In this document: positions 3,841 through 62,400 of the stretch, piece by piece
Layout of the letters: every line of letters begins with the position of its first letter
Numbering within the stretch: position 1 is the first letter of the stretch
Origin: Eledone cirrhosa
Lineage: Eukaryota
Assembly (NCBI GenBank): GCA_964016885.1
Contig: OZ024742.1
Location: 35,712,001-35,776,000, forward strand
DNA length: 64,000 nucleotides
Direction of reading: 5' to 3'
Notes under the pieces: generated by a model
Seen by the model: the letters and a program-made list of their open reading frames with translations, nothing else
Told to the model about the DNA's origin: nothing
Database searches by the model: none
Position numbers and translations under genes: made by a program

Positions 3841-3961
3841 TTATTGACACGTGTTTCTAAAACAGTTACATAACCTGAAAACAGCTACTATCTACAAAGT
3901 TTTAGTTATGCAGACATTCAATATTTCAATGTTATTATTTACTGTCATTTCATCAGAATAA
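3841..3961 (-). ncRNA. Type I HHR with a 92-nt stem II insertion
   Basis: Minus strand: TTATT-CTGATGA-[92 nt, aatgACAG...CTGTttta]-GAAA-CACGTG-TC-AATAA. Confidence 0.7.
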
Positions 3962-4878: not shown

Positions 4879-5504
4879 TTATGTAATATTCGGCTTGTAG
4901 TGGGAAAAAAGGGTTTTAGTTCTGTGACGGCAGAATAATGTTCGTTCAATTCTGTTATTCAGCAATTTCTTCTTGTGTGTGATTATGTAATAAATCTCAA
5001 GATTACACAATTTGCAGAAATTTTGGCTCCTGGAAAAGCTTTGGGTTTTAGCTAATTTCTCCCATTTTAGGGTAAACTTTTGATCGCTATCCCTGAGCGT
5101 CCAAGCTTTTTCTGCTAAAGTTGTTACATTTCTTTGGCTCTGGTGTTTTATTGAGTAAGAATGCCTATATAATCGAGATTTAAACGATGTTGCCGTTGAT
5201 CCCACGTAATACCACTCGTTGCCTCCGGATTTAATGGTACACTTATAAATAATATTTTTTTCCAGGCAGTTATTGCCGAGGGGGCAGTTGTCAGGATAGG
5301 TGCAGTTACAGTTGTGTACGTTGGGTTTTCTCTGGAGTAGTATTGCGGACGAACTTAGGTGTGGTTTATTTATGTTCTGTAGTGTATTGTCTACTGTTTT
5401 TTTTGTGTTCTTTGTACTTAAGTTCTTAGTGTTTTCGTTTAACCTTCTAGTATTGATTTTTTTGTGTGTTGTTCAAGGTTTAACGCTGTAGAGTATGACA
5501 GTCT

Positions 5505-11904: not shown

Positions 11905-12097
11905 TATAGAGATAGATAAATCTACCAAAATGTACGGCAGTGTCCAATCCGTATGAAGAACTCAATGTAATCCGAATATCATGAAAAGAGAAGATGTATT
12001 CAAAAAAATTTTTCGGTGAAAATTAACGGAAAACAGAGTCAAGATAAATTAATAAAATAATGAATAAACAAAGAAACAGTTCCTTATATTAAAAAAT

Positions 12098-12235
12098 TCA
12101 TCATTTTACGATCGTTTCTAGGATATATATGTTAGTGTTGGTATGCATATCCTATAGATCTATGTAAAAATTTTACAAACTATCAGAGGGAATATACATT
12201 CCTACACATATATATGCTGTCTTCAGAAATAATGA
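12098..12235 (-). ncRNA. Type I HHR with a 101-nt stem II insertion (mirror of 15308-15455)
   Basis: Minus strand: TCATTATTT-CTGAAGA-[101 nt]-GAAA-CGATCG-TA-AAATGATGA. Confidence 0.72.
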
Positions 12236-12923
12236 TATTTGTTTATTGAAAAAACCAACAAAGATTTAATACAATAGGTCTGTTTGGGAACAGGTTTTGA
12301 ATTGACCAATAGAAGGATAGTGAAGGTCAAGATAGTAATATAGTAGTAAAAGAACCTTAATTTATGGGTAGAGGAAGGTAGATTTCAGTTTTGGATGGAA
12401 AGAATATTATGAATGAAAGATTATTTTAGGGATGAGAATAGGTCATATGCTGACCTCAGAAATAATTATATTTGTTCATTGAATAAAACCAACAAAGATT
12501 TAATATAGTAGGTTTGTTTGGGAACAGGTTTTGAATTAACCAATAGAAAGGTAATAATTGGCCAAATGGTAAAATAGTAGTAATTGAAATTTATTTTGGG
12601 GTAGAAGAAGGCAGATTTCAGTTTTGAATGGAAGGAGTATGAAGAATGAAAAGTTTATTTTAGGGGTGAAAATAGGTCAGGTCAGTAAAAGGTAACACGA
12701 AAAGTTGCTGTTATAAAAGAATAATGTAAATATCTAAGGAGACTAAAATTTTACGATAAAAGTGTTAGTGAAAAAAATATATATGGAATTTACATCTATG
12801 AAAAGAAAATAAATTAATTTAATTGATGGGTATATTTATATTGATAAAATTATATTAATGCTTATAGATATGATAAATAAGAGTGCTGTTAAAGACGAGG
12901 GGGAATTTAAAAAAATATAAAAA

Positions 12924-12982
<59 letters not shown>

Positions 12983-13216
12983 TTGGGGGGGGGGGGTAAA
13001 TTTATTAGTGAGAAATAATAAATATATAGAGATTTCAAGGAACATAGAATCATAACCTGAAATTAAAACATTATATATGTTTACTTAATGGTATCAAAAT
13101 TAGGAAAAGATAGTTGTAAGAAGGAAAGTAAATTTATGAAGTTCATCAGTAGTAGAATATTAATTATTGGTTACCTAAATTAAAAATAGTTTTTATATTA
13201 ATTTCTAAAATGTATA

Positions 13217-13724
13217 TTAATTAGGTTTATAATATTTAAAGGTTTTTCTCAGTTTATGATTACACGATATTATTAATTCCTGTCGCTTATTTAATAGGAT
13301 ATCCTTAGATTTCATTATTTCAAAAAGTTCTTGGGAACATAATTTACATTCATATCTATTATTTTGATAAGGGGTGGCCCTTTTGAGCACACTCCAGGTC
13401 AGGTCATAATCTATATTCCTCTTTCTATAATTATTAATTATTTCAGCTAGAGATGTTGTATTAGCTAATGCGGCATTTTTAAAACTGTGTTTGTGGGTAT
13501 TAAATCTTACCTTAAATTGGTTAGAGGTAGCTCCTATATATGAATAAATTGAGTCCTTAGTGTTAACTTTACATTTATATACTATGTTATTAACAAGGCA
13601 ATTTCCTTTTAATGGGCAGTTTGCTTTGTTTCTACAGTTACAACTTTTCTTGAATCCTGTATCAGAGGAGATATTATGGTTAGTTTGATGTACTCGTGGT
13701 ATGCTCATGGTTTTTTTACATTTT
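13217..13724 (-). pseudogene. PLE GIY-YIG endonuclease C-terminus (left arm)
   Basis: CNCRNKANCPLKGNC...IVYKC...YIGAT..FKVRFNTH...LTW...CKLC..E...LLNKRQE...CNH. Confidence 0.88.
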
Positions 13725-13729
13725 TTACA

Positions 13730-14344
13730 TTTTTTACAACCACAAATACCATCAAATTTTAAATAGATCAACGGTTAAATTCTCCTACTCAACAACCAAA
13801 AACATAAAACAAAATATAAGTGACTACAATGCATATAAATGTAAAAAAAACCATGAGTATACCACGAGTACATCAAACTAACCATAATATCTCCTCTGAT
13901 ACAGGATTCAAGAAAAGTTGTAACTGTAGAAACAAAGCAAACTGCCCATTAAAAGGAAATTGCCTTGTTAATAACATAGTATATAAATGTAAAGTTAACA
14001 CTAAGGACTCAATTTATCCATATATAGGAGCTACCTCTAACCAATTTAAGGTAAGATTTAATACCCACAAACATAGTTTTAAAAATGCCGCATTAGCTAA
14101 TACAACATCTCTAGCTGAAATAATTAATAATTATAGAAAGAGGAATATAGATTATGACCTGACCTGGAGTGTGCTCAAAAGGGCCACCCCTTATCAAAAT
14201 AATAGATATGAATGTAGATTATGTTCCCAAGAACTTTTTGAAATAATGAAATCTAAGGATATCCTATTAAATAAGCGACAGGAATTAATAATATCGTGTA
14301 ATCATAAACTGAGAAAAACCTTTAAATATTATAAACCTAATTAA
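13730..14344 (+). pseudogene. PLE linker plus GIY-YIG endonuclease (right arm; +1 frameshift in the A-run at 13843-13850)
   Basis: ILNRSTVKFSYSTTKNIKQNISDYN joins KKTMSIPR...CNCRNKANCPLKGNC if the A8 run is read as A7, which is its length in the left arm. Confidence 0.88.
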
Positions 14345-14863
14345 TATACATTTTAGAAATTAATATAAAAACTATTTTTAATTTAGGTAACCAATAATTA
14401 ATATTCTACTACTGATGAACTTCATAATTTTACTTTCCTTCTTACAACTATCTTTTCCTAAAATTGATACCATTAAGTAAACATATATAATGTTTTAATT
14501 TCAGGTTATGATTCTATGTTCCTTGAAATCTCTATATATTTATTATTTCTCACTAATAAATTTACCCCCCCCCCCAATAATTATATATATATATATATTC
14601 TTTTTATATTTTTTTTAATTCCCCCTCGTCTTTAACAGCACTCTTCAATTACATCTAACTCTTATTTATCATATCTATAAGCATTAATATAATTTTATCA
14701 ATATAAATATACCCATCAATTAAATTAATTTATTTTCTTTTCATAGATGTAAATTCCATATATATTTTTTTCACTAACACTTTTATCGTAAAATTTTAGT
14801 CTCCTTAGATATTTACATTATTCTTTTATAACAGCAACTTTTCGTGTTACCTTTTACTGACCT

Positions 14864-15330
14864 GACCTATTTTCACCCCTAAAATAAACTTTTCATTCTT
14901 CATACTCCTTCCATTCAAAACTGAAATCTGCCTTCTTCTACCCCAAAATAAATTTCAATTACTACTATTTTACCATTTGGCCAATTATTATCTTTCTATT
15001 GGTTAATTCAAAACCTGTTCCCAAACAAACCTACTATATTAAATCTTTGTTGGTTTTATTCAATGAACGAATATAATTATTTCTGAGGTCAGCATATGAC
15101 CTATTCTCATCCCTAAAATAATCTTTCATTCATAATATTCTTTCCATCCAAAACTGAAATCTACCTTCCTCTAACCATAAATTAAGGTTCTTTTACTACT
15201 ATATTACTATCTTGACCTTCACTATCTTTCTATTGGTCAATTCAAAACCTGTTCCCAAACAGACCTATTGTATTAAATCTTTGTTGGTTTTTTTCAATAA
15301 ACAAATATCATTATTTCTGAAGACAGCATA
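14864..15330 (+). repeat. Diverged tandem duplication (~233 bp x2) in the PLE 3' UTR
   Basis: TGACCTATT...ATTTCTGA(GGT/AGA)CAGCATA occurs at 14864-15096 and 15097-15330. It is mirrored in the left arm. Confidence 0.85.
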
Positions 15331-15455
15331 TATATGCGTATATATGTGTAGGAATGTATATTCCCTCTGATAGTTTGTAAAATTTTTACATAGATCTATA
15401 GGATATGCATACCAACACTAACATATATATCCTAGAAACGATCGTAAAATGATGA
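15308..15455 (+). ncRNA. Type I HHR with a 111-nt stem II insertion
   Basis: TCATTATTT-CTGAAGA(15317)-[111 nt closed by ATATATATG/CATATATAT]-GAAA(15435)-CGATCG-TA-AAATGATGA. Stem I is 9 bp with one G-U pair. Confidence 0.72.
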
Positions 15456-15503
15456 ATTTTTTAATATAAGGAACTGTTTCTTTGTTTATTCATTATTTTA
15501 TTA

Positions 15504-15574
<71 letters not shown>

Positions 15575-18722: not shown

Positions 18723-19179
<457 letters not shown>

Positions 19180-22650: not shown

Positions 22651-22715
22651 TATTTTATTATATATATTTCAAGGGCGACCAAGCAAATCTTGGTGCGCTT
22701 TCATCAGATAAAATA
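22651..22715 (-). ncRNA. Type I HHR
   Basis: Minus strand: TATTTTAT-CTGATGA-AAGcGCACCAAGatttgCTTGGTcGCcCTT-GAAA-TATATA-TA-ATAAAATA. Confidence 0.85.
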
Positions 22716-35963: not shown

Positions 35964-36629
35964 ATCTATAAATAATTTATGAAGAATATATAATATGACG
36001 GGTAATTTTGAATAACAGTAATAAAAATGTATAAATATATGAAAATATAATTAAATATCGTTGTCTTTTTAAACTGCATTCTTTAAGACGTCTTTCTTTT
36101 ATTTTCAAAGAGAAAAAGGTGTAGTGTGGGTGAAATATGCTTACTGGTTTATTTTAGCAGGTTCAATGACCATATAACTGTTTTCTAGACAAACTGGAGC
36201 AGAATTATCATCGAAGGTGTACAAGCCATAAGGAAAAAAGTCACAGAAAAAAGTTACAATTTGGGTTAAGAAAAAAGAAAAATATCACATCTCATTATAT
36301 ATATATAGAAAGGGCGGTGAATTGGCAGTATCGGTAGAGGGTTGAACGCCATGCGTTGACGCATAGAGTTACTGCCCTTGCCATTCTGAGTTCAAATCCC
36401 GCCGAGGTTAACTTTGCCTTTCATCCTTACGGGGTCGATAAAATAAAGTACCAGTAATGCACCGGGAAATTGCTGGCCTTGTGCCAAAAGTAGAAACAAT
36501 TATATATATATAGAAAAAAAGATGAAATCGAAAATGCAACTGGAGTGTTATTTTTTTTTAAAAATATATATTTATTTGGTTCCTTTACGGATTTCGCAGT
36601 TCTTCTGCTTTTCAAAAGTAGAGTTGAGA

Positions 36630-37519
36630 TGGAGGGTCTGTGGTTTTTCTCACATCAGATGTGGTACCTCCGTAAAAACACTTATTAGCAAGACATACCC
36701 GTTCCAAAGACCCTCATGTATAGATAAGAAATGTATAACCTGTAAAATAAGCCCCCATATTAACTGTAAAACTAGAAATGTAGTGTATAGCATAAGATGT
36801 ACTGAAGGACAATGTAGAAACAAAAATATAGTGTACATAGGTGAGACAGCTCGTAGTATAGGGGAACGAATAAATGAACACTGGCGAGACCTTCAAGATA
36901 ATAAAGAATCATCTGTGCTCTACCAACATGCTAAGATAGAACACAGGGTTAAATTAGAGAACATAGAAATAAAAATAGAATCCACACACAGAAAAGATGC
37001 AATGTTTAGGCAAATTACAGAGGCAGTAAGCATAAAAGAATTATAACCAAAATTAAATAGAAAATATGAGTGGAACAGCAACATCACAACTTACAATTAA
37101 GGACAAAATGAAAACACACACACACATAGAACAAACAACCAACCAACAATAAATAAATAAATAAATAAATAAATAAACAAATAGATAAATGAACACAAAC
37201 ACACACAGACACCCGGATGTGGCGCATGCGCAAACTGAGCACACAACACACACACAGAAACAAAATGGCGTAGGACAGAAGAAAGGAAAGCCACAGAAAC
37301 AAAGAAAGGAATCCCCAGTCACTGAAGAGGTCACAGAGTGTGTGACGAAAGGACTATGACTATATATAAACAACTATCTGGTTGTGGAACCAACCAACCA
37401 ACCAGAAATTTATAAGTTTGTAGATTTGTAAATTTATAAATTTATAAATATATAATAAATTGAAGTGAAAGCAGCTGGTGCGTGTGTTTCTTATTGGCAA
37501 CATGACCCTCCCAAAGTAT

Positions 37520-38170: not shown

Positions 38171-38267
38171 TAAATGAACGCACGTTTCTTCCATATCTTA
38201 AGCAGATATATAATTAATTATTATTTAATTAATTATATGAACAGAATATTGGAATCATCAGAATTAA
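38171..38267 (-). ncRNA. Type I HHR with a 66-nt stem II
   Basis: Minus strand: AATT-CTGATGA-TTCCA...ATATAATTAATT/AATTAATTATAT...TGGAA-GAAA-CGtgCG-TT-cATT. Stem I is imperfect. Confidence 0.65.
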
Positions 38268-39793: not shown

Positions 39794-39861
39794 TATTTTA
39801 TCTGATGAGAACGCAGATATCATCCCATGATGATATTTGTTTTTGAAATGCGCATAATAAA
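39794..39861 (+). ncRNA. Type I HHR (family of 19074)
   Basis: TTTAT-CTGATGA-stem II-GAAA-TGCGCA-TA-ATAAA. Confidence 0.82.
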
Positions 39862-42639: not shown

Positions 42640-42823
42640 AGATAGATAAATATTAGTTTAACCATGATAATAATAAGAAAGGCAAGTTACTTTACATATT
42701 TTTACATATTTCATTCATTATATATATATATATATGTGTGCGTGTGTATGTATATATACATATATGTATATATATATATATCTATATCTATATATATATA
42801 TATATATCTATATATATATACAT

Positions 42824-43694
42824 AGGACTTAAAATTAACCTGGCTAAGACCAAAGTACTAGTTTGTAGGAAAGAAAACAAGGCGGCGGTCCCTTCTGGGA
42901 AATGGTCGTGCTCGGTGTGTAGGAAAGGCGTAGGTAGAAACTCCATTTTATGTCCTAAATGCAAAGTATGGGTGCATAAAAGATGTAGTGGGATCACAGG
43001 TAGGCTAACTAAGAACATAGATTTTACATGTGGCCGGTGCTCTGGTGCAATAAGTAGCAGCAAGTGCCCACAAACTACTAGCTCTTTCAATTGCGCAGAG
43101 GGTTCTATAGAAATAGTGGACAGCTTCCGTTACCTGGGCGATAAAATCAGCAGTGGGGGAGGGTGCTCTGAAAGTACTGTAGCTAGAGTCAGAACTGGTT
43201 GGAAAAAGTTCAGAGAGCTTATACCACTATTAGCTGCTAAAGGGTTCTCACTAAAAATGAAAGGCAGGTTGTACGATGCCTGCATACGAACAGCAATGCT
43301 GCATGGCAGTGAGACCTGGGCATTGTGTGCAGAGGATATACGCAGACTAGAGAGGAACGAAGCTTGCATGCTCCGCTGGATGTGTAACAGTAATATACGT
43401 GAACGGCAAAGCATAAACGAACTAAGGAATAAATTAGAGATAAGAGGGATCAGATGTTGTTTACTCGAGAGAAGGCTACGTTGGTATGGACACGTGATGC
43501 GCATGAAAGTCGATAGCTGTATAACAAAGTGCAGGGCAATAAAGATAGACGGTAGTCACGGAATAGGCAGACCTAGAAAAACCTGGGACGAGCTGATAAA
43601 CTCCGACATCACACACTTACACCTCTCCAAGACAATGTCACTGGACCGAGACCTTTGGCGGTACTCAGTAACAGAGAAGACCCGCCTTACCTAA
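42824..43694 (+). pseudogene. 5'-truncated RTE-clade LINE ORF2 (end of the RT domain, an inserted PHD-like finger and the C-terminus); the frame is still open
   Basis: GLKINLAKTKVL...EIVDSFRYLGD...WKKFRELIPLL...MLHGSETW...RRLRWYGHVMRM...GRPRKTW...DRDLWR. The N-terminus of the tracked ORF is microsatellite. Confidence 0.92.
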
Positions 43695-48205: not shown

Positions 48206-48271
48206 TTTTATCTGAAGAGAACACAATATCTGTCCCAGGATGATTTTGTATTCGAAATACGTATAATAAAA
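48206..48271 (+). ncRNA. Type I HHR
   Basis: TTTTAT-CTGAAGA-GAAcACAAtATC...GATtTTGTaTTC-GAAA-TACGTA-TA-ATAAAA. Confidence 0.85.
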
Positions 48272-58339: not shown

Positions 58340-58418
58340 TGTCTCCTGATGAGTTCGATACTCGAGATTTATCCTTAATAGGATATCTCAAAATACGAAC
58401 GAAACCATGGTAGGGATA
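58340..58418 (+). ncRNA. Type I HHR with an extended stem II
   Basis: TGTCTC-CTGATGA-GTTCG..GAGAT..ATCCTtaatAGGAT-ATCTC..CGAAC-GAAA-CCATGG-TA-GGGATA. Confidence 0.85.
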
Positions 58419-58717: not shown

Positions 58718-59476
58718 AATTAAGTCAAAGATGTACATCCATATATGTATACTGAAATACTAGTATGTATATGAATACACACACGTATACATATGTAGAT
58801 GTACCAAGTTTTTTTTCACTGATCACTTTACTGTGAGTGGCCAGCTATTCTGTATGTAAACACACAGACAAACCGGTTTTTAGAGTCATACTGGTTTTTG
58901 AGGAAACACCTTTCCTCTATTCTCCAGAAAGCCAGACAAGGAATATTGAACTAGTTTCGTTGTTGTTACAACTCATCAGCAATATTTACCTATCTTCCGG
59001 CCTCTCTAGAGAATCGTAAAAGCACATATCGCTATATGCTTTTTCTATGAAAATTAGTAGTGGGCAGACCAACTTGCATAGAGTGTGAGTAAGTACCGGT
59101 TCAACGGAGACGATAAAAACAAATAACGAAACGAAATTAAATTTCGTTTCGTTTGTAACTCACTTTTGTATGACTGACGCTCAAACAATTAAGTCAAAGA
59201 TGTACATCCATATATGTATACTGAAATACTAGTATGTATATGAATACACACACGTATACATATGTAGATGTACCAAGTTTTTTTTCACTGATCACTTTAC
59301 TGTGAGTGGCCAGCTATTCTGTATGTAAACACACAGACAAACCGGTTTTTAGAGTCATACTGGTTTTTGAGGAAACACCTTTCCTCTATTCTCCAGAAAG
59401 CCAGACAAGGAATATTGAACTAGTTTCGTTGTTGTTACAACTCATCAGCAATATTTACCTATCTTCCGGCCTGTCT
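58718..59476 (-). repeat. Inverted ~1.6 units of the 470-bp repeat, abutting (TA)n; HHRs at 58942-58986 and 59411-59455
   Basis: Reverse complement of the downstream unit. The junction is at 59476/59477. Confidence 0.95.
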
Positions 59477-62400
59477 TTGGTCTGCCCACTACTAATTTTC
59501 ATAGAAAAAGCATATAGCGATATGTGCTTTTACGATTCTCTAGAGAGGCCGGAAGATAGGTAAATATTGCTGATGAGTTGTAACAACAACGAAACTAGTT
59601 CAATATTCCTTGTCTGGCTTTCTGGAGAATAGAGGAAAGGTGTTTCCTCAAAAACCAGTATGACTCTAAAAACCGGTTTGTCTGTGTGTTTACATACAGA
59701 ATAGCTGGCCACTCACAGTAAAGTGATCAGTGAAAAAAAAACTTGGTACATCTACATATGTATACGTGTGTGTATTCATATACATACTAGTATTTCAGTA
59801 TACATATATGGATGTACATCTTTGACTTAATTGTTTGAGCGTCAGTCATACAAAAGTGAGTTACAAACGAAACGAAATTTAATTTCGTTTCGTTATTTGT
59901 TTTTATCGTCTCCGTTGAACCGGTACTTACTCACACTCTATGCAAGTTGGTCTGCCCACTACTAATTTTCATAGAAAAAGCATATAGCGATATGTGCTTT
60001 TACGATTCTCTAGAGAGGCCGGAAGATAGGTAAATATTGCTGATGAGTTGTAACAACAACGAAACTAGTTCAATATTCCTTGTCTGGCTTTCTGGAGAAT
60101 AGAGGAAAGGTGTTTCCTCAAAAACCAGTATGACTCTAAAAACCGGTTTGTCTGTGTGTTTACATACAGAATAGCTGGCCACTCACAGTAAAGTGATCAG
60201 TGAAAAAAAAACTTGGTACATCTACATATGTATACGTGTGTGTATTCATATACATACTAGTATTTCAGTATACATATATGGATGTACATCTTTGACTTAA
60301 TTGTTTGAGCGTCAGTCATACAAAAGTGAGTTACAAACGAAACGAAATTTAATTTCGTTTCGTTATTTGTTTTTATCGTCTCCGTTGAACCGGTACTTAC
60401 TCACACTCTATGCAAGTTGGTCTGCCCACTACTAATTTTCATAGAAAAAGCATATAGCGATATGTGCTTTTACGATTCTCTAGAGAGGCCGGAAGATAGG
60501 TAAATATTGCTGATGAGTTGTAACAACAACGAAACTAGTTCAATATTCCTTGTCTGGCTTTCTGGAGAATAGAGGAAAGGTGTTTCCTCAAAAACCAGTA
60601 TGACTCTAAAAACCGGTTTGTCTGTGTGTTTACATACAGAATAGCTGGCCACTCACAGTAAAGTGATCAGTGAAAAAAAACTTGGTACATCTACATATGT
60701 ATACGTGTGTGTATTCATATACATACTAGTATTTCAGTATACATATATGGATGTACATCTTTGACTTAATTGTTTGAGCGTCAGTCATACAAAAGTGAGT
60801 TACAAACGAAACGAAATTTAATTTCGTTTCGTTATTTGTTTTTATCGTCTCCGTTGAACCGGTACTTACTCACACTCTATGCAAGTTGGTCTGCCCACTA
60901 CTAATTTTCATAGAAAAAGCATATAGCGATATGTGCTTTTACGATTCTCTAGAGAGGCCGGAAGATAGGTAAATATTGCTGATGAGTTGTAACAACAACG
61001 AAACTAGTTCAATATTCCTTGTCTGGCTTTCTGGAGAATAGAGGAAAGGTGTTTCCTCAAAAACCAGTATGACTCTAAAAACCGGTTTGTCTGTGTGTTT
61101 ACATACAGAATAGCTGGCCACTCACAGTAAAGTGATCAGTGAAAAAAAAAAACTTGGTACATCTACATATGTATACGTGTGTGTATTCATATACATACTA
61201 GTATTTCAGTATACATATATGGATGTACATCTTTGACTTAATTGTTTGAGCGTCAGTCATACAAAAGTGAGTTACAAACGAAACGAAATTTAATTTCGTT
61301 TCGTTATTTGTTTTTATCGTCTCCGTTGAACCGGTACTTACTCACACTCTATGCAAGTTGGTCTGCCCACTACTAATTTTCATAGAAAAAGCATATAGCG
61401 ATATGTGCTTTTACGATTCTCTAGAGAGGCCGGAAGATAGGTAAATATTGCTGATGAGTTGTAACAACAACGAAACTAGTTCAATATTCCTTGTCTGGCT
61501 TTCTGGAGAATAGAGGAAAGGTGTTTCCTCAAAAACCAGTATGACTCTAAAAACCGGTTTGTCTGTGTGTTTACATACAGAATAGCTGGCCACTCACAGT
61601 AAAGTGATCAGTGAAAAAAAACTTGGTACATCTACATATGTATACGTGTGTGTATTCATATACATACTAGTATTTCAGTATACATATATGGATGTACATC
61701 TTTGACTTAATTGTTTGAGCGTCAGTCATACAAAAGTGAGTTACAAACGAAACGAAATTTAATTTCGTTTCGTTATTTGTTTTTATCGTCTCCGTTGAAC
61801 CGGTACTTACTCACACTCTATGCAAGTTGGTCTGCCCACTACTAATTTTCATAGAAAAAGCATATAGCGATATGTGCTTTTACGATTCTCTAGAGAGGCC
61901 GGAAGATAGGTAAATATTGCTGATGAGTTGTAACAACAACGAAACTAGTTCAATATTCCTTGTCTGGCTTTCTGGAGAATAGAGGAAAGGTGTTTCCTCA
62001 AAAACCAGTATGACTCTAAAAACCGGTTTGTCTGTGTGTTTACATACAGAATAGCTGGCCACTCACAGTAAAGTGATCAGTGAAAAAAAAAAACTTGGTA
62101 CATCTACATATGTATACGTGTGTGTATTCATATACATACTAGTATTTCAGTATACATATATGGATGTACATCTTTGACTTAATTGTTTGAGCGTCAGTCA
62201 TACAAAAGTGAGTTACAAACGAAACGAAATTTAATTTCGTTTCGTTATTTGTTTTTATCGTCTCCGTTGAACCGGTACTTACTCACACTCTATGCAAGTT
62301 GGTCTGCCCACTACTAATTTTCATAGAAAAAGCATATAGCGATATGTGCTTTTACGATTCTCTAGAGAGGCCGGAAGATAGGTAAATATTGCTGATGAGT

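Follow-up and report, generated by a model that had tools for sequence, protein, structure and literature searches.

In a 64,000-nucleotide stretch of the Eledone cirrhosa genome (contig OZ024742.1; the whole stretch is called the window below), we find a hammerhead ribozyme motif whose stem II is enlarged into a 111-nt arm. The arm is predicted to form a single long, irregular hairpin, whose pairs show compensatory changes. The motif (positions 15308–15455, + strand) is the pseudo-LTR (pLTR) hammerhead of a Penelope-like element (PLE) of the Hydra clade. A PLE hammerhead at the Hydra-clade pLTR is known; the long arm, and a conserved bulge module inside it, are new. Our favoured reading, held at slightly less than even confidence, is that the arm docks a protein, most likely the element's own reverse transcriptase (RT)-endonuclease, in a dimer-type and likely protein-assisted hammerhead.

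A Hammerhead with an Extended Stem II

The requirements of a type I hammerhead core (CUGANGA, GAAA, A15.1-U16.1 and H17) are present in the motif. The 5' strand of stem I (15308–15316) pairs over 9 bp with 15447–15455; this open-ended helix flanks the core and is weaker (3–5 bp) in some families. There follow the CUGANGA box (15317–15323), which is retained in 29 of 30 aligned copies of the family to which the motif belongs (family A), the arm (15324–15434), predicted to be an unbranched irregular hairpin with a C·A mismatch at its base, and then the GAAA box, palindromic stem III and cleavage triplet GUA (15435–15446), with the predicted cut after 15446. Family-A arms are 99–116 nt long, and the 111 nt found here include a 10-nt duplication (15328–15337) that the alignment of family-A copies places in this copy alone. 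Stem II is closed beside the core, in family A by a covarying A-U/G-C pair one step away. The G10.1-C11.1 pair is absent: its place is taken by C·A in 59 of 64 family-A sequences and by A·A, U·U or A·G elsewhere. Stem III is an 8-nt palindrome, short for closure of a monomer, which is a feature of dimer-type PLE hammerheads, and folding two copies together predicts an intermolecular stem III (P 0.86–1.0 in families A and B; 0.92–1.0 for this motif).

An earlier note on this DNA had listed five split cores in the window, and all five spacings are as it gave them. Besides the 111 nt at 15317–15446 (+), they are 101 nt at 12226–12107 (−) in an inverted mirror copy of the family-A element (11925–13774, −); 92 nt at 3956–3846 (−) in a second family, family B, whose arm has two modules; 66 nt at 38261–38177 (−) in a degenerate copy without the double module and without a linked ORF; and 48 nt at 58346–58412 (+) in a motif (58340–58418) that has no module and belongs to a group with arms of 48–59 nt. 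The same note held that stem I still pairs across the gap. It does so over 9 bp in the motif at 15308 and over 5–6 bp at 3956 and 58346, but at 38261, the degenerate copy, it begins with a mismatch.

The suspicion that searches with short stem limits would miss such motifs proved justified. No Rfam hammerhead is found at 15308–15455 among the 150 of 401 window matches listed, and the Rfam hammerhead models give no match at gathering score to any of ten long-arm loci. A descriptor that allows 44–125 nt finds four matches in the window and none in each of 40 dinucleotide shuffles.

Elsewhere in the window, tandem units of about 470 nt lie between 58926 and 63852. Every unit contains a short type I hammerhead that scores 37.7 bits with Rfam HH9, the gathering score being 52; the array has an inversion near 59470–59550 and resembles a non-LTR retrozyme array. 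Four positions (18886–19136, 22659–22707, 39802–39856 and 48212–48265) belong to very common hammerhead families with a stem II of 26–36 nt and palindromes started by U-A, with no ORF linked. A GIY-YIG fragment of a non-Hydra PLE (36447–37046, +) is followed by a short-stem hammerhead-like core at about 37320–37360, and a 345-codon frame (42657–43694, +) resembles, by eye, the C-terminal region of an RTE-like reverse transcriptase of the non-LTR kind.

The Carrier Elements

The motif forms the 3' end of a 5'-truncated family-A element that lies in a 3.6-kb inverted pair. GIY-YIG frames with a CxCx5Cx5C motif, which had been noticed upstream of the longest inserts, are found at 13820–14344 (+), 13217–13774 (−, in the mirror copy) and 4879–5472 (−, family B). 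In the family-A element the first of these, a C-terminal endonuclease frame, is followed by the 3' UTR (14345–15307), by the hammerhead, and by a tract (15447–15509) that holds the 3' strand of stem I and reaches a first element end at about +55–63 nt, after which comes (TA)n. The mirror copy has a longer tail that reaches a second end (11925–12045, −). The UTR contains a 234-nt tandem duplication (14863–15331) that is family-wide, and the first unit of it ends at a decayed CUGA half core (15083–15089).

Full-length copies (L061, L062 and L194) have the layout pLTR-ORF-pLTR, with the long hammerhead in both pLTRs and ORFs that are intact or nearly so. Their single ORF, like that of L379, encodes an RT with a C-terminal GIY-YIG endonuclease and is flanked by pLTRs. 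As read from the translations, the proteins have RWK (family B) or RWR (family A) together with DKT. They also have a CxCx5C linker and, towards the C-terminus, CxxC and CxH, and they lack CCHH. Such features define the Hydra clade in Craig et al. (PMC8557442). Since Pfam gives no match for the long-arm Hydra proteins, the assignment rests on motifs and homologs. The copies are joined to (TA)n, as expected for Hydra-clade insertion, and the units from hammerhead to hammerhead measure 3.3–4.3 kb, above the <3 kb that is typical, although not strict, for Hydra. The earlier description of the motif as an enlarged kind of hammerhead in the 3' ends of PLEs holds, with core boxes conserved across families and the clade now named.

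Family B is young: 149 of the 150 genomic matches listed for its endonuclease are identical in protein, and intact 785-codon frames are present. The ORFs of long-arm families such as L061 and L194 encode 772–819 amino acids with an added N/T/K-rich linker, most homologs having about 700–720. Several long-arm groups show no ORF in the fetched loci. We considered three other identities. A Naiad PLE is out since the endonuclease is C-terminal and not N-terminal, a non-LTR retrozyme since families A, B and E are ORF-bearing PLEs, and a SECIS reading of the arm since the ORFs lack an in-frame UGA and Rfam has no match.

All 58 intact cores found downstream of endonuclease matches (29 each in families A and B) continue past the cut to one of two ends, at about +55 or +190 nt in family A and at +42 or +157 nt, or further, in family B. 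Because insertions end 42–190 nt beyond the cut site, the template would be uncut RNA with the arm in place. In most double-module families (B, E, F, G and J) AATAAA stands 0–12 nt past the cleavage triplet (3845–3840, −, in the window); unlike these, family A lacks it there.

Fold of the Arm

For a 105-nt family-A copy the predicted fold consists of stem I plus a single long, irregular hairpin (z −4.4). The alignment for covariation that had been proposed was made for family A: RNAalifold on 19 divergent sequences (two rows being misaligned at the 5' end) gives 23 consensus pairs, 8 of them changed on both sides, including an A-U/G-C swap adjoining the core. One A-U/G-C double change divides 14 copies 8:6. 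When arms are folded alone, 16 of the 27 clusters tested have a median member at z ≤ −2; the 92- and 66-nt window copies with their flanks fold no better than shuffles (z −0.5). Pair-breaking changes make up 9 of 31 changes shared by at least three copies versus 26 of 50 private ones, a difference that is not significant (p = 0.064) and is suggestive only as a sign of selection.

The internal hairpins first proposed for the insert fared unevenly. TGTAAA/TTTACA is the real apical hairpin. GGAAT/ATTCC arises from a substitution unique to the two window copies among 30 aligned, and ATAGATCTAT and CATAAC/GTTATG form no hairpins in the family folds; the family-A insert is a single unbranched hairpin and not a series of them. 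MAFFT does not align the arms across families, so that no cross-family covariance model was built, and our covariance model (R1) is one of family A only, with its two copies as the only strong matches in the window.

Other groups differ in design. One with arms of 93–97 nt (L132–L140, L199, L200 and L373) has two hairpins on one stem, often in motifs about 1 kb apart, with no ORF found; a supergroup with arms of 58–63 nt (L161–L187, L209 and L210) has its own shared internal pattern, without the module. We also looked for genomic traces of A-to-I editing, as the module holds UAG. At the DNA level, rare changes in 45 copies of a 101-nt subfamily comprise 3 A>G, 2 T>C and 8 G>A, with no A>G excess, and family B shows none among the contig matches listed. 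No joint across the arm is seen among the matches listed in contigs X1–X3, which are of unrecorded kind and from one sample.

A Bulge Module Shared by Families

Hydra families whose arms are not alignable have a short module in common, 5'-A-N-U-N-3' facing 5'-Y-A-G-3', which we read from the predicted fold as an A·G pair, a bulged variable base, a U-A pair, and a wobble or mismatch. It is usually present twice, at a spacing of about one helical turn (10–12 nt along the 5' strand, 9–13 nt along the 3' strand). Among 35 clusters with arms of at least 75 nt, 9 have the double module in their median representative; over 300 shuffles the mean is 0.22 and the highest value 3. We drew the descriptor by eye, using some of the sequences so tested, and the families are related by descent. 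Four families fetched later (L227, L238, L240 and L239) also fit, their first 80 bases having been known beforehand. Across 11 families the closing pairs take both G-C/A-U and U-A/C-G forms. The anchored columns pair by construction, and the unanchored neighbours of the module pair in 10, 6, 9 and 7 of the 11. The unpaired letters are invariant where adjacent pairs vary.

Family A has the double module in none of 64 sequences. It keeps a single one in the distal hairpin (15369–15396), where A-N-U-N at 15372–15375 faces U-A-G at 15391–15393. Except for the bulge, its positions are identical in 19 of 19 divergent sequences and are the least variable part of the arm. The module lies 15–26 nt from the core in double-module families and about 38–50 nt from it in family A, and several long-arm groups lack it.

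An A·G pair beside a bulge is one architecture of protein-binding internal loops. The variable distance to the core is easier to reconcile with an outside ligand than with a fixed stem I contact, and together with the fixed unpaired bases and their position on one helical face it makes the module, in our model, best read as a site for such a ligand.

Abundance in the Genome

We counted exact-pattern matches in the 3.0-Gb genome, with reversed patterns as controls; the copies are not independent, and the pattern is restricted to a single form of stem III and to spacings of 8–38 and 52–144 nt. Cores split by 52–144 nt number 40,752 (1,723 in the control), far from the equal frequency that would mark chance matches. 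They comprise 14,023 at 52–82 nt (control, 632), 11,688 at 83–113 nt with A before GAAA (290), 7,489 at 83–113 nt without that A (292), and 7,552 at 114–144 nt (509). Cores with 8–38 nt number 11,799 (2,409). By the same pattern, long-split cores thus stand to short ones at about 3:1 in this genome. The fetched loci hold 204 distinct long motifs, which fall into 52 clusters, 21 of them with at least two members; some of the singletons are chance matches.

In family A, 11,092 pattern matches retain the arm, against four in which stem II is short. The splice junction that an intron would predict is absent from all four, and they resemble microhomology deletions in single copies, none of them amplified.

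Lineage of the Long Arm

In trees of the endonuclease the long-arm families fall to the same side of a branch whose SH-aLRT support is 92 (75 rows) or 97 (43 rows), both being quick trees of about 145 columns. An 11-nt family of the same genome (L368, beside a Hydra endonuclease and on a long branch) groups among metagenome relatives. Of 77 marine metagenome loci, 34 have a credible hammerhead, all with 10–30 nt, and many others lack a 3' UTR; relaxed inspection of 21 of these loci gave no convincing long form. Two long matches among them (155 nt in L265, 118 nt in L289) were dropped, as they lie in or run into ORFs and lack the palindrome. A metagenome search with a single protein query found no relatives, nor was one found in viral contigs. 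The 26 published Hydra rows are all short-stemmed (Craig et al., PMC8557442, File S2); published and metagenome relatives together span 9–30 nt. From these comparisons the arm looks lineage-specific, and it may have a single origin.

Arms of 91–102 nt also occur in L212, L211, L218, L222 and L229. In L212 (1864–3260) a long-arm motif lies 760 nt behind the endonuclease of a non-Hydra PLE; long arms may therefore have arisen more than once, with L212 as a possible second origin.

Comparison with Known Hammerheads

Published Hydra-clade hammerheads share with ours the pLTR position downstream of a C-terminal GIY-YIG domain, the type I topology, a short palindromic stem III, a frequent mismatch at the base of stem II (U·U is common) and (TA)n targets (PMC8557442, File S2). 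They differ in stem II, which has 3–7 bp and loops of 3–10 nt in the published set and 75–116 nt with a repeated internal module here, where the UTRs are 400–1,100 nt long. Craig et al. searched for bare cores with a spacer of 7–17 nt (PMC8557442). The minimal PLE hammerheads of Cervera and de la Pena (2014, PMC4209133) likewise have a dimer-type design, a weak stem III and an extra or unpaired base starting helix II, but their "larger than usual" helix II has 7–8 bp and G10.1-C11.1 is conserved in them.

Longer spacings have been hinted at. Entries in Craig et al. include two long-loop cores from plants (PLE-X1_sMoe and PLE-X1_sTam, loop II about 30–35 nt) and eight Naiad cases named HHR_half_core (35–50 nt). 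They resemble the long arms in having a split core; they are shorter and few, belong to other clades, and have no shared internal structure described (PMC8557442). Our literature search returned no report of a structured stem II of 50–120 nt; Arkhipova et al. 2017, Lunse et al. 2017 and the supplementary figures of PMC4209133 lay outside its scope and could hold long-loop cases.

The discontinuous CLEC2 hammerhead of rodents is likewise interrupted by a long insertion. There, however, a type III ribozyme within an mRNA has the insertion in its stem I loop, where the retroelement motifs described here have a structured arm on stem II.

What the Arm May Do

We propose the following model. Two copies of the RNA would pair through the palindrome to form stem III, and uncut RNA would serve as template. 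The bulge module of the 75–116-nt arm likely binds protein; where there are two modules, one helical turn apart, they would present the same face to it. The bound RT-endonuclease would hold the ribozyme or help it fold. Its binding would serve to time or to aid cleavage and would not set the site of priming. The arm's conservation in the pLTRs of intact copies, the fold scores, the paired changes and the conservation of the module are the evidence we bring to it. The earlier note had likewise suggested an RT-binding or regulatory domain.

PLE hammerheads cut poorly alone.

The closest biochemical parallel is the Anolis Poseidon element PAc (PMC11167929), where there are two internal sites at which the RT starts, and where the hammerhead needs added protein in order to cleave. 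It too has two insertion ends downstream of the cut site and an uncut RNA template. It differs in having a short stem II that overlaps the ORF start and a tail of 30–40 bp; in our elements the ends are 115–135 nt apart and the ORF starts 210–360 nt past the cut site. In PAc cleavage is not required for insertion, and the RNA that insertion needs is +20 to +172 of the ORF (PMC11167929), so that the 5' half of the hammerhead is dispensable there. As this RNA lies downstream of most of the hammerhead, our analysis makes a role of the arm in gating cleavage as likely as one in priming.

The module could instead be a surface on which RNA docks, contacting the partner arm or the downstream tail and replacing the loop I-loop II contact without protein, which we think unlikely. 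Fixed spacing of one turn and non-canonical pairs are typical of tertiary receptors too, and the palindromic stem III would join two copies. However, the distance from module to core varies by up to two turns between families, stem II stacking on stem III would probably make the arms of a dimer point apart, and an informal look brought out no covarying partner sequence.

It is also rather improbable that the arm merely grew by slippage in AT-rich sequence and was tolerated, with selection only on closure of stem II and the module a relic. Arm length is free (48–116 nt across families) and small duplications are visible in the arms, module-less groups are abundant, and the comparison of shared with private changes fell short of significance. 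Longer UTRs and protein linkers in the same clade make general growth possible, a counterpoint to protein docking. Another is that short-stem Hydra families thrive, also in this genome (the 11-nt family L368), which means that Hydra elements in general can move without the arm. What speaks against mere growth is that the module has the same unpaired letters in families whose endonucleases are only 36–62% identical and whose arms are beyond MAFFT, and that arm deletions by microhomology do occur and yet were not amplified. The conserved module, in our model, favours a binding site.

For family A one may think of a retained spliceosomal intron of about 85 nt, whose 3' AG supplies G12 of the GAAA box, so that splicing leaves a short stem and the unspliced RNA is the template. 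We regard this as improbable. A donor-like site (AG/GTATGT in the family, AG/GAATGT at 15350–15357 in the present copy) is found in 61 of 64 family-A sequences and YAG at G12 in 63 of 64, and both occur in the two divergent sister clusters as well; in full-length copies the segment falls within the 5' UTR. In D. virilis the intron of Penelope adjoins the hammerhead (PMC4209133), and PLEs retain introns (PMC8557442). Yet the donor site is base-paired in the arm, which alone explains its conservation, a polypyrimidine tract is absent, some subfamilies have lost the branch-like CTAAC, and in one sister cluster splicing would remove G12. There are no precisely spliced genomic copies against 11,092 unspliced ones, although intron retention in PLEs would give the same result. 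As a general explanation the intron is out, since many related families lack GT or AG (among them the 7,489 matches without A before GAAA).

That the conserved letters act in DNA, as an internal pLTR promoter or an endonuclease recognition site with the hairpin incidental, is very improbable: PLE pLTRs do contain internal promoters (PMC8557442), but the compensatory changes, like the many G-U pairs, suggest that it is RNA structure that is conserved, and the two halves of the module stand at a variable separation of 17–37 nt.

Docking of a protein remains the reading we prefer. The conserved module can be mutated without touching the catalytic core, and this can be done in the young family B with its intact ORFs, which makes the question of protein assistance directly testable. 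Since long-split cores are about three times as numerous as short ones here, hammerhead counts obtained with short-stem descriptors may be underestimates, and so may reports of PLE clades without hammerheads or with half cores only. It is tempting to speculate, although we hold it only as a tentative possibility, that a natural hammerhead has been fused to a protein-binding arm to give an RNP switch, in which a module repeated at one-turn spacing would dock the RT-endonuclease, possibly as a dimer, and control the time of cutting, in tens of thousands of copies that are invisible to current models.
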